Positions 2,776-17,601 of a DNA stretch of 42,778 bases are shown here, in pieces. The position numbers were made by a program, and so were the translations under genes. The stretch covers positions 1-42,778 of IMG/VR virus record IMGVR_UViG_2541047878_000002. The stretch is one strand, 5' to 3'. Origin of the DNA: a virus. Its lineage: Duplodnaviria; Heunggongvirae; Uroviricota; Caudoviricetes. How positions within the stretch are numbered: the first letter of the stretch is position 1; every line of letters begins with the position of its first letter. The notes beneath the pieces were generated by a model, which saw only the letters and a list, made by a program, of their open reading frames with translations, was not told the DNA's origin and did not search any database.

Positions 2776-3087
2776 TTATTCGATGCGCACTCCTGGTATT
2801 TCGCCTTTTGATATTGCGAAGTCATAAATTTGCGCAGCACTATACCCATCTCGCATCCATGAATCTAATGCGCGAATAGCCTCGCTACGCTTTTTATCTT
2901 CTCTCTCATTTTTGATATCAACGAGGACATCAACGCAATTAAGGCAAATGTGGATTTTGTCCTTACATTCGATCATGGCGGCTTTACCATGATTTCCGCC
3001 ACACAGTGAGCATAAATCTTCAGGGTCTGGCTGGTATTTCTGTAACGTTAGATGGTTGAATGTTGAACAGGCCATAATCATCTCCAT
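2776..3087 (-). CDS. Hypothetical Cys-rich early-left protein (CxxC…CxxC, possible zinc ribbon)
   Basis: 103-aa ORF co-oriented with the pL operon; motifs CSLCGG…CLNC. Confidence 0.45.
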   Translation of the reverse strand: MEMIMACSTFNHLTLQKYQPDPEDLCSLCGGNHGKAAMIECKDKIHICLNCVDVLVDIKNEREDKKRSEAIRALDSWMRDGYSAAQIYDFAISKGEIPGVRIE

Positions 3088-3470: not shown

Positions 3471-4185
3471 TACCTTTATCCCAGATGGATTTTATGGTCG
3501 TCCATGTGACTGGTACTTTAATTTCAATCCGCCCGCTACCGTCACAGGTATCGCAATCATCATCGCCAAAGCATTCCGGGCAGCTGATAAACGTAGTTTC
3601 TGAAAATTCACCGGATAGCGCACCCTTAGCGCCGTTCTCGGCTGTTAGTCTCTTCGGCACCATGACCCAACCATCCGGAGTTACCGGAGAGTTGCCATTT
3701 ACATCGAAGTTTGGCTCTGCGTCCTGAACCAGGAGGATGTAACCATTCTTGGCAGTATCAAGTTCTAACGCCTCGGTGACGGTGCCGAAATAGCGATTAC
3801 CTAAATCAGCATCACAAGTGCTTACATCAATGGAAACTTCCATGCCTTCGATTAATTCTGGCAAGTTGTAAGTTTGGCTTACAGGTTGGCTACCCTGAAG
3901 CATGGAGGCGCGGTGACACCAGATAATCCAGCCAAGCGCCATATCCCATGCCATGTATTCTCTATCGCCATTTTTTGCCCTACGGCGATCTACAGATTCC
4001 CCGAAACGCTTCTCCATAAATAATTCATAGGCTGCTCGTTCATCCGATACTGCTGCCAGTGATGCCAGTGCAATTCGTGCCAGTTCTTCCGCTTCTTCTG
4101 CTGGAAGTACAACGTTGCTACCCGGTCCGTATGTTTCGCGCCACTGCTTGATTGTCAGCAGTCGCTCTTTGGTAATAGTGGTCAT
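3424..4185 (-). CDS. Hypothetical early-left protein with C-terminal Cys cluster
   Basis: 253-aa ORF, C-terminal CPECFGDDDCDTCDGSG motif; no family recognised. Confidence 0.5.
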   Translation of the reverse strand: MTTITKERLLTIKQWRETYGPGSNVVLPAEEAEELARIALASLAAVSDERAAYELFMEKRFGESVDRRRAKNGDREYMAWDMALGWIIWCHRASMLQGSQPVSQTYNLPELIEGMEVSIDVSTCDADLGNRYFGTVTEALELDTAKNGYILLVQDAEPNFDVNGNSPVTPDGWVMVPKRLTAENGAKGALSGEFSETTFISCPECFGDDDCDTCDGSGRIEIKVPVTWTTIKSIWDKGIAYFAAEPPQEVNLG

Positions 4186-8690: not shown

Positions 8691-8960
8691 CTATTTGTCA
8701 TCGTGTAAGTGACGCAGGTTATTAACTCGCGGCCAGTAATATTTTGGCTTGGCACGAGATCCGGGTCTTGGACCTACACAAACTATATAGCTCTCTTCTT
8801 TCCTCGGAAGGCCAGGTGCATCTAGCAGACGGCCTAGTTCGAATTTTTTTACGTTGACACCAGGAGGAATCACCTCGACGATAAACCCGATTTTTACCTT
8901 CGTTACACCGTTTGATGAGCTTGACCATTTAACTTCATCGTTCAATTTGAACTTCATCAT
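8691..8960 (-). CDS. Hypothetical pL-operon accessory protein (89 aa)
   Basis: MMKFKLNDEVKWSSSSNGVTKVKIGFIVEVIPPG…; start trimmed to the ATGATG at 8955-8960 so it does not overlap N; immediately downstream of N. Confidence 0.5.
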   Translation of the reverse strand: MMKFKLNDEVKWSSSSNGVTKVKIGFIVEVIPPGVNVKKFELGRLLDAPGLPRKEESYIVCVGPRPGSRAKPKYYWPRVNNLRHLHDDK

Positions 8961-8965
8961 TAACC

Positions 8966-9271
8966 TCAATCGTAATAAGCTGGAATTGATTTTCTGCGTT
9001 GTTTCTGGCGACCAACACAAGTCACACCCATTTCACTGCGTGGCTTGCGGTAGTAAATACGGTTCTGTTTACTCTCGACTTCTTCTGCCTTCTTGCAGCG
9101 AAGGTTTCCGAGTGATGCTGCTTTATCTGCTCTGACGCAACCAGAGAGCTTTAGCGCAATTTTTCGCGCCAGTCGCTGCTCTTGCATTGCCTGTTCACGT
9201 TGAGCCTGTCTGCGTGCTCTGCGGCGATTTCTGGTGTTATCGTCAGCCAGATATGTAATGACTACTGTCAT
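8966..9271 (-). CDS. N: N-like transcription antiterminator
   Basis: 101 aa from ATG at 9271; arginine-rich motif NRRRARRQAQREQA near N-terminus; C-terminus RIYYRKPRSEMGVTCVGRQKQRRKSIP resembles lambda N C-terminus (…TWYSKPGERGITCSGRQKIKGKSIPLI); cognate nutL/nutR present. Confidence 0.8.
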   Translation of the reverse strand: MTVVITYLADDNTRNRRRARRQAQREQAMQEQRLARKIALKLSGCVRADKAASLGNLRCKKAEEVESKQNRIYYRKPRSEMGVTCVGRQKQRRKSIPAYYD

Positions 9272-9311
9272 GTTGACCTCCGGGAAGGTACACATCCTTG
9301 TGTGTCGATGA

Positions 9312-9431
9312 TTATTTGTTTTTGCGTTCCCACATCCAGTCATCTACTTCAGACCAGATGGTGAAACCGAAGCCGATGGCGAATGTGGTAACTAAACCAC
9401 CGAGAATTGGGTTGGTAATGATGTCTAACAT
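9312..9431 (-). CDS. Small hydrophobic peptide (39 aa) in the N leader
   Basis: MLDIITNPILGGLVTTFAIGFGFTIWSEVDDWMWERKNK; GAGGA SD 7 nt upstream of ATG; translated by hand (below ORF-track threshold). Confidence 0.35.
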   Translation of the reverse strand: MLDIITNPILGGLVTTFAIGFGFTIWSEVDDWMWERKNK

Positions 9432-9603
9432 TTTCTGTTCCTCAGATGATTAGCTTTGGTGGTGTGGTCGGTGGGAGACCCATTTCGACCCGCTTCGTCC
9501 GACTTCAATTCGGCAATAGTCCCGCAGGCCTCGCCGCTTTACGTGCGACATATTCCCGTCCATGAACCCTTCACCACACCCCAAAGCCAACTGCTCTTTG
9601 GTT

Positions 9604-9643
9604 CCCGCATTTCGGCGGGACAATCCCATCAATGTTAAAGAGC
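9604..9643 (-). promoter_or_regulatory. nutL (boxA gctctttaaca + boxB hairpin cccgc-cgaaat-gcggg)
   Basis: boxA and boxB read on the minus strand are identical to those found downstream of cro (nutR); boxA matches the rrn-type boxA consensus. Confidence 0.6.
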
Positions 9644-9684: not shown

Positions 9685-9775
9685 GCTTAAATTTAAGATC
9701 TCTTTAATTAATGGTCAAGAGTATTTTTGAAGAAAACTTAAATTTTCTTTCGTAACTTAAGTTTTGCTTTGATTT
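9685..9775 (-). promoter_or_regulatory. OL/pL region with P22-type operators
   Basis: operator ATTTAAG-atct-CTTTAAT at 9691-9708 shares half-sites with OR1; further operator-like sites at 9736-9772; candidate pL -35 ttgacc (rc of 9713-9718) and -10 taaatt (rc of 9689-9694). Confidence 0.5.
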
Positions 9776-9808: not shown

Positions 9809-10459
9809 TTATGGAAGGTTTGCTAGTTTTGCATCGACAACTACGCCGATGATTTTGCAGTTTCCGTTGATCTCGATCATCGGATATTGTGGGTTAAGTG
9901 GTTTTAGAAACTTCCTGCCTGCATCAATAACTAACTTCTTGAAAGTTGCCTCGTTTTCTCCTTCGAGCTTTGCAACTACCAGTTTCCCGTTACGCGGCTC
10001 TACTTCAGGATCGACGAGTATTATCATTCCTTCAGGGATACTGAGACCGGCCGGAGCCGTCATTGAGTCTCCCTTCACGTCCAACCAAAACGAATCTTCT
10101 GAACAGTCTACGGTTGTATCGTACCAGTTATCTATTGCACGCTTATGATATGGTTCTACAGCTTCCATCCAGCATCCTGCGCTCACCCAGCTAATCAGAG
10201 GGTATGACCCTCTTGGATCATGCCTACTGTGATAGGCAATGTTTGAAAGACTTTCCTCTCCTTTCATCAGATAGTCAGGGGAACACTTCAACGCATTAGC
10301 CAGGGCGAGAAGATTCTCTCCATTTGGCTCTGTCTCAGAGCGTTCCCACTGAGATATGGCAACATTAGACACGCCGACCATCTTTCCAAGTGCGGCCTGT
10401 CTGATCTTGAGTTCTTTTCTCCGAGCGCGAATGCGCTCTCCCATCAATTGAGTTTTCAT
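9809..10459 (-). CDS. c2: Prophage repressor, P22 C2 type (LexA-like S24 autopeptidase fold)
   Basis: 216 aa, near-identical to recalled P22 C2 (MNTQLMGERIRARRKKLKIRQAALGKMVGVSNVAISQWERSETEPNGENLLAL…); HTH N-domain plus C-terminal S24-like domain. Confidence 0.95.
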   Translation of the reverse strand: MKTQLMGERIRARRKELKIRQAALGKMVGVSNVAISQWERSETEPNGENLLALANALKCSPDYLMKGEESLSNIAYHSRHDPRGSYPLISWVSAGCWMEAVEPYHKRAIDNWYDTTVDCSEDSFWLDVKGDSMTAPAGLSIPEGMIILVDPEVEPRNGKLVVAKLEGENEATFKKLVIDAGRKFLKPLNPQYPMIEINGNCKIIGVVVDAKLANLP

Positions 10460-17445: not shown

Positions 17446-17520
17446 GGGTCAGTCGTATAAAGGTCATTACGGAAGGCTGTTAACCTTCTTATCGTGGTTC
17501 GAGTCCACGCTGTCCCGCCA
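17446..17520 (+). tRNA. tRNA-like gene, anticodon GUU (Asn), CCA encoded
   Basis: hand-folded cloverleaf: acceptor GGGTCAG/CTGTCCC (one U-U mismatch), D-loop with GG, anticodon stem gaagg/ccttc with loop cuGUUaa, T-arm cgtgg-TTCGAGT-ccacg, discriminator G + CCA. Confidence 0.55.
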
Positions 17521-17525
17521 AACAT

Positions 17526-17601
17526 GCTGGTTTAGCTCCAATGGTAGAGCGGTCGCCTTGTAAGCGAATGGGTAGCGGTTCAAGTCCGTTAACCAGCACC
17601 A
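17526..17601 (+). tRNA. tRNA-like gene, anticodon UGU (Thr), CCA encoded
   Basis: hand-folded cloverleaf: acceptor GCTGGTT/AACCAGC (7/7), D-arm TAGCTCCAATGGTAGAGC, anticodon loop cuUGUaa, T-arm agcgg-TTCAAGT-ccgtt, discriminator A + CCA. Confidence 0.6.

Follow-up and report, generated by a model that had tools for sequence, protein, structure and literature searches.

The window analysed here, by which we mean the whole 42,778-nt stretch of DNA in IMG/VR record IMGVR_UViG_2541047878_000002 (Caudoviricetes), carries the elements of a lambda-type N leader on its minus strand, which we read as the transcribed strand. A repressor gene, pL, boxA, boxB, a large hairpin and an N-family gene follow one another in the lambda order, and between the hairpin and N lies a 39-codon open reading frame (ORF) with its own Shine-Dalgarno (SD) sequence (Table 1). 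The pL-nutL-N leader is among the best-studied regulatory regions and is usually drawn without any gene inside it.

Table 1. Features of the N leader and its surroundings in the window, in the order of transcription.
Feature	Position	Strand	Details
CI/LexA-type repressor gene	9809-10459	-	Pfam HTH_3 and Peptidase_S24; upstream of pL
Terminator-like hairpin of the repressor gene	9810-9791	-	From a search for terminator-like sites; upstream of pL
pL-type promoter	9690-9718	-	-35 TTGACC 9718-9713, 17-nt spacer, -10 TAAATT 9695-9690
nutL	9604-9643	-	boxA GCTCTTTAACA 9643-9633; boxB hairpin CCCGC-CGAAAT-GCGGG 9619-9604
Large N-leader hairpin	9449-9591	-	19-bp basal stem with one bulged A (9460); 120-nt interior
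SD sequence of the small gene, GAGGA	9439-9443	-	7 nt to ATG; read from the sequence
Small gene	9312-9431	-	39 codons and stop; ATG 9431-9429, TAA 9314-9312; product MLDIITNPILGGLVTTFAIGFGFTIWSEVDDWMWERKNK; ORF and translation confirmed
Short spacer hairpin, ACACA-AGGA-TGTGT	9290-9303	-	Within the 40-nt spacer; from RNA fold
N-type antiterminator gene	8966-9281 (including SD)	-	GGAGG 9281-9277, ATG 9271, stop 8966

A sequence-only reading of this DNA had pointed to the small ORF, to a GAGGA SD sequence at good spacing and to a location between nutL and N, downstream of pL and in the same direction. The ORF was recovered with exactly the translation given there, the SD sequence is present, and the positions of nutL, pL and N bear out the placement. 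Because an in-frame TAA (9452-9450) lies six codons 5' of the ATG, the start is fixed at 9431 and no upstream extension is available. The pL site (TTGACC-17-TAAATT) is the sole sigma-70-like site on the minus strand between 8900 and 9900; transcription would begin at about 9683, and the transcript-start segment ATCAGCAGGACGC is homologous to the lambda pL transcript in our leader alignment. In alignments, the window nutL corresponds to the nutL elements annotated in 933W and in lambda, as well as to the P22-type boxB of a related E. coli locus (L001, described below).

The N-type gene matches phrog_271 ("anti-termination protein N-like"; E=3e-33) and shares about 97% nucleotide identity with N as annotated in N7, CUS-3 and HK620. 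Its start is the GGAGG-preceded ATG at 9271, which agrees with the annotation of N7 and CUS-3. A mechanical list of ORFs places the start at ATG 9343 on the minus strand, overlapping the 3' end of the small gene, and a second in-frame ATG lies at 9295, inside the spacer hairpin; both are without an SD sequence. From the stop of the small gene to the N start there are 40 nt, with N's own GGAGG 5 nt before its ATG. The stem of the spacer hairpin is retained through compensatory changes, reading GACACACA/TGTGTGTC in L001 and GCACA/TGTGC in L003 and L033. Directly downstream of N, a gene at 8694-8957 (minus strand) encodes an 88-aa protein that matches phrog_11941 and has no Pfam match.

Since a 39-codon ORF is not significant by itself, relatives were collected. 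They comprise L001, an E. coli genome whose copy is 86% identical across the ORF, contigs encoding variants P0003 and P0005, and 25 IMG/VR contigs, and the comparative set consists of 34 loci with 14 distinct nucleotide versions. The 39-codon frame is intact in all 34 loci, with unchanged start and stop positions and with zero indels or stops. Variable alignment columns fall at codon positions 1, 2 and 3 in the ratio 11/8/26. Pairwise dN/dS (Nei-Gojobori) ranges from 0.05 to 0.34 in the proposed frame; in the two shifted sense frames, most values exceed 1. Six divergent sequences were pooled to compare all six reading frames: dN/dS was 0.145 in the sense frame and 0.355 in the antisense frame with the same wobble positions, against 1.4 to 1.8 in the other four. 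For the most divergent pairs, binomial tests of the excess of synonymous differences give p values in the range of 1e-5 to 1e-6 (about 3e-6 to 7e-6), tests that are not independent because the pairs overlap in sequences. Moreover, five variants with otherwise divergent upstream sequence retain a GGAG/GAGG motif 7 to 9 nt 5' of the ATG. The comparison of amino-acid with nucleotide conservation that had been suggested as a check on the sequence-only reading thus gave a coding pattern, and this comparative evidence argues that the ORF is a real protein-coding gene.

An antisense ORF of 51 codons (9298-9453, plus strand), which has its wobble positions in common with the small gene, is likewise open in every variant. 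We rejected it as a gene and read it, with its intermediate dN/dS of 0.355, as the usual wobble-sharing shadow frame. Relative to it, the sense frame has more synonymous and fewer non-synonymous differences. Across the variants the antisense ORF changes in length (43 to 56 codons) and in start codon (TTG, ATG or GTG), while the boundaries of the sense ORF are fixed. No promoter-like site was found on the plus strand between 8900 and 9900, and the direction of the small gene is that of pL. Because the antisense frame also falls below 1, the assignment of strand rests on this combined evidence and not on dN/dS alone.

The peptide matches phrog_7482 (PHROGs v4; E=8.3e-24), with its residues 1-39 on positions 1-39 of the 46-position profile. 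The same family is matched by gp86 of Shigella phage Sf18 (46 aa, "putative membrane protein"; E=2e-29) and by a 45-aa Avunavirus protein (E=7e-24), relatives that first appeared as weak tblastn matches. On these profile matches, we assign the small gene to a catalogued but uncharacterised phage family. Over 37 residues, identity between Sf18 gp86 and the window peptide is 38%, and the two have the N-terminus MLDII(T/K)NPIL(G/C)G in common. The lambdoid copies thus resemble the other family members in their full-length profile match, the MLDII-NPIL-G motif, a hydrophobic helix, a charged tail and a size of 39 to 46 aa. They differ from them in being 6 to 7 residues shorter, with an invariant tail of their own (DDWMWERKNK), and in lying in the N leader of temperate phages, whereas the others lie in gene arrays of virulent myoviruses. 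In those phages (Mooglevirus and Avunavirus), the gene is part of a co-directional array of small, early-looking hypothetical genes, and there is no N.

PHROGs provided the sole match, and searches of the peptide against Pfam, NCBIfam and PADLOC returned zero matches; Rfam scans of the window region and six related loci gave nothing relevant. A tblastn search of 50,697 phage records found the lambdoid form in no isolated, sequenced phage. Among complete E. coli genomes, 31 of 5426 contain the gene, and it is annotated in none of the 31 (RefSeq/PGAP). A profile search of 1.8 billion cluster representatives returned a few close enterobacterial relatives together with over-extended or chimeric gene calls, and because the close relatives were only a handful, we regard the family as narrow. 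By their source names, these relatives come from E. coli, E. albertii, Atlantibacter hermannii and Citrobacter; where the gene is called, as in a few GenBank records, it is "hypothetical" or "uncharacterised protein". A Clostridia match in a scan of species-representative genomes was spurious and belonged to a longer, unrelated ORF. Searching the literature for the peptide sequence, or for a gene located upstream of N, gave no result. The location of the gene inside the N leader, where lambda, P22 and 933W have the ribosome-binding site of N, and its lack of RefSeq annotation both appear to be undescribed in the literature searched.

To place the gene within the leader, we aligned the leader with those of lambda, 933W, N7, CUS-3 and one P22-like phage. 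All leaders aligned have a large hairpin 3' of nutL, with a basal stem of the form ...GGCTTTGG-GGTGTGGT... and ...ACCACACC-A-CCAAAGC.... In the window, the basal stem is present in both the minimum free energy (MFE) and the centroid structures (z=-2.9). Among 10 variant types, chosen by at least 5 closing pairs and with L001 left out, 93.5% of the cells in the stem-arm alignment are paired and 10 of 17 pairs are altered on both sides; slid controls gave 37 to 49% paired, and 0 of 500 shuffles reached the observed values. The stem is present in every variant examined, and L001 closes it with a C/A mismatch in place of the bulge.

The structured element of the lambda N leader is reportedly an RNase III processing site (Kameyama 1991; Wilson 1997, 2002). 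PMC9032294, citing Kameyama 1991, states that RNase III activates lambda N expression and counts N mRNA among the transcripts that RNase III regulates positively. N together with Nus factors at nutL represses N translation across a "highly structured" leader (PMC5725501). The P22 hairpin gives rise to P22B, a stable 96-nt RNA that accumulates in infection (PMC13397905), and the reported RNA, placed on our alignment of the P22-like leader, ends 16 nt before the ATG of gene 24. From the homology of its basal stem to that of lambda and the published lambda work, the leader hairpin of the window phage would also be processed by RNase III.

What follows the hairpin differs between the phages. In lambda, 933W, N7 and P22, the SD sequence and ATG of N lie about 10 to 20 nt past the 3' arm of the hairpin. 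In the window, the same slot holds the SD sequence and ATG of the small gene, and N lies 160 nt further on with a GGAGG of its own. The two leaders are thus alike in a homologous transcript start, the same order of boxA and boxB, a homologous basal stem (GGCTTTGGGGTGTG...CACACCACCAAAGCTAA) and an SD sequence about 10 nt after the stem, and they differ in that this SD sequence belongs to N in lambda, 933W, N7 and P22 and to the small gene in the window. The absence of such a gene from lambda, as put forward in the sequence-only reading, held up: tblastn with the peptide gave no lambda match, and the lambda leader runs from the hairpin into the N ribosome-binding site. In L001, the post-hairpin sequence CCAAAGCCATTTCACATGGAG is that of P22 as far as the SD sequence and then diverges into the small gene. 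From the leader alignments, therefore, the small gene, the spacer hairpin and the second SD sequence form an optional module at the N ribosome-binding site, which appears to have been inserted there or, in other lineages, deleted.

In the lambdoid loci, the gene is always just upstream of N, at 40 nt from the N ATG except in L032, and this adjacency spans at least five repressor (immunity) types and at least five N types. In L032, an additional 48-codon ORF (2861-3007, plus strand; phrog_2180) lies between the leader hairpin and the small gene, and its stop overlaps the small-gene ATG at 3001 (ATGTTAG), which suggests translational coupling of the two. As this locus shows, there is room in the slot for more than a single micro-gene. 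CUS-3 (L038, about 700-895) has approximately 190 nt of unrelated sequence in the same slot, including a terminator-like hairpin CCCCGTCTAATTGGCGGGG; the interval was annotated by Casjens as boundary sequence bsq5.

The interior of the large hairpin behaves as a swap cassette of 28 to 216 nt, with at least eight unrelated versions between conserved flanks, and each version ends in the covarying stem, a bulged purine and CCAAAG. Such cassettes were seen in the window (9449-9591, minus strand), in L001 (2395-2520), L003 (about 3900-3985), L026, L013 and L032, and in N7 (L037), 933W (L036), lambda (L042) and a P22-like phage (L044). The L003 cassette is a 28-nt mini-helix, and part of the L001 cassette (2428-2509) is tRNA-like and is called by both PGAP (tRNA-OTHER) and ARAGORN (Pro-tgg). 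The ends, with stem, purine and CCA, and the tRNA calls in L001 prompted us to consider the hairpin as a tRNA-like substrate of RNase P. We rejected this as a general reading: the flanks are homologous to the lambda RNase III-site hairpin, the CCA is base-paired within the 19-bp stem, and the Rfam tRNA model does not score the L001 variant. Individual cassettes may possibly be such substrates. The prophage small RNAs AgvB, AsxR and Pas were also considered as an identity, and they were not located here and gave no Rfam match.

AlphaFold, given a shallow family alignment, predicts that the product starts with a short turn and continues as a single unbroken helix from residue 8 to residue 38 (mean pLDDT 84). 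The best 19-residue Kyte-Doolittle window covers residues 9-27 with a mean of 1.58, a borderline value for a membrane-spanning segment. Each of the three basic residues (K/R) is C-terminal of this hydrophobic window, and the charges on either side of it do not define a topology. Among the six aligned lambdoid sequences, the positions without variation include the N-terminal TNPILGG, G20, F23, T24, W26, S27 and the whole tail DDWMWERKNK; a few copies outside that alignment deviate at single tail positions. G12, T16 (mostly), G20 and T24 lie on one face of the helix, and in the model this face of small residues would suit helix-helix packing. A membrane peptide is a plausible reading of this prediction, and the proposal of a small membrane-active peptide made from the sequence is reasonable because the ORF evolves as a coding sequence and its predicted product is hydrophobic and helical.

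Taken together, we consider it likely that the small gene is a genuine, translated accessory gene of lambdoid or P22-like prophages, encoding a 39-residue, single-helix and probably inner-membrane peptide of phrog_7482 that is expressed from pL and acts in trans. Judging by its position, the gene would be transcribed from pL ahead of N, and because of this its product would be made immediately upon infection or induction, with no need for antitermination. After RNase III processing of the hairpin, the small gene would be the 5'-proximal cistron of the mRNA and would come under the same leader-level control that applies to N in lambda, and N, 40 nt downstream, would be translated from its own strong SD sequence. 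The peptide would most likely insert into the inner membrane and act in trans during the first minutes of the lytic program. Superinfection exclusion and interference with host membrane proteins are conventional roles of early phage membrane peptides, and it is possible that this peptide binds or perturbs a host membrane protein or excludes superinfecting phage; an action in cis on N is probably absent. Several points count against this interpretation: the hydrophobicity is borderline for a transmembrane segment, the wobble-sharing antisense frame also has a dN/dS below 1, the invariant lambdoid tail DDWMWERKNK is not accounted for, and the gene is never called by NCBI PGAP. In addition, a functional link to N, which this interpretation leaves out, could underlie the strict adjacency to N in all lambdoid loci.

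One sub-case of the membrane-peptide interpretation, rather than an exclusive rival to it, is that the peptide is toxic and depolarizes the membrane or kills the host at the onset of the lytic program, in the manner of a type I toxin or of Kil. The short, hydrophobic, single-helix product with its charged C-terminus and its Gly/Thr-lined face would fit, as would the location within the pL operon, which in lambda-type phages houses genes that interfere with the host. In size, single hydrophobic helix and charged terminus, the peptide does resemble type I toxins and small membrane peptides (Hok, TisB, Ldr, Kil and Imm-type exclusion proteins), but it has no sequence relationship to them. Type I systems have an overlapping or adjacent antisense RNA with its own promoter, whereas neither an antisense promoter nor a sign of an antitoxin RNA was found on the plus strand between 8900 and 9900, Rfam gave no match and Pfam, NCBIfam and PADLOC showed no match to a toxin family. 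We therefore regard toxicity as unlikely.

With similarly low confidence, we can envision an RNase III-gated, N-independent immediate-early effector that occupies the slot of N and whose membrane action, or stalling at its tail, feeds back on N. If true, such an effector would influence the lysis-lysogeny or induction decision and would add a new layer to the classic pL/N circuit.

The sequence-only reading had also offered a leader peptide that couples translation to N expression, and this proposal fared poorly. As a cis-acting upstream ORF, the small gene would have a peptide without a job of its own, and its translation, or stalling of the nascent chain at DDWMWERKNK-stop, would remodel the leader or block Rho and so set the level of N translation. 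The ORF is always directly upstream of N, and most lambdoid variants have the same C-terminal 10 residues. The hairpin with compensatory changes starts only 9 nt past the stop, so that a ribosome terminating there would melt part of it. In three of five variant types, moreover, the SD sequence of the small ORF can pair with a pyrimidine-rich tract immediately 5' of the SD sequence of N, but the fold that encloses both SD sequences is no better than that of shuffled sequence (z=-1.2). The selection on amino acids (pooled dN/dS 0.145) speaks against a leader peptide, for which only the act of translation should matter. Furthermore, the same N gene, with identical SD sequence and start (CGGAGGTCAACATG), is used without the ORF in N7 and CUS-3, and likewise functions without it in HK620. 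Translationally coupled genes have overlapping or abutting stop and start codons and a dependent downstream gene; here the 40-nt gap and the independent GGAGG of N make termination-reinitiation unlikely.

Nor does the peptide have the character of an arrest peptide. It resembles TnaC, SecM and MifM in being encoded by a short ORF before a regulated gene, with a conserved, Trp-rich C-terminus at the stop and a hairpin downstream, but it differs from them in that N has an autonomous SD sequence and works without the ORF. Conservation across the wider family lies in the N-terminus and hydrophobic core and not in the C-terminus, and it extends to virulent phages that have no N. The hydrophobic segment ends 12 residues before the stop, so that in a chain of 39 residues it would still be in the ribosome tunnel at termination, unlike in monitors of the SecM/MifM type. 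A purely cis-acting role therefore seems quite improbable to us. Least credible of all, and very improbable, is that the ORF is not a gene, its frame being open by chance or through selection on an RNA or on the antisense ORF: the antisense frame is open in all variants with a dN/dS of 0.355 and PGAP leaves the region unannotated in 31 of 31 E. coli genomes, but the sense frame has the lower dN/dS with its synonymous excess, fixed boundaries and a conserved SD sequence against a variable antisense ORF without a promoter-like site, sense-frame homologues are annotated in virulent phages in the direction of their neighbours, and the ORF region folds no better than shuffles (z=-1.2).

In a subset of lambdoid and P22-like prophages of E. 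coli, E. albertii, Citrobacter and Atlantibacter, the leader thus contains a conserved micro-gene, which shows that small accessory genes can insert in the N leader and that reference annotation systematically misses them. The number of genomes concerned is small. As the peptide would belong to the earliest phage products, it is an inexpensive, well-defined candidate for a role in host takeover or exclusion.

Two further observations concern the sequence around the module and elsewhere in the window. An 8-bp direct repeat, TAATCATC, flanks the SD sequence and ORF on the minus strand (9445-9452 and 9307-9314), with its copies 138 bp apart. In N7, from which the ORF is absent, one AATCATC immediately precedes the SD sequence of N, and L001-type copies are without the upstream copy of the repeat. 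The repeat pair may be a junction of short-homology recombination. Two adjacent tRNA genes, Asn-gtt and Thr-tgt, are located at 17446-17601 on the plus strand.
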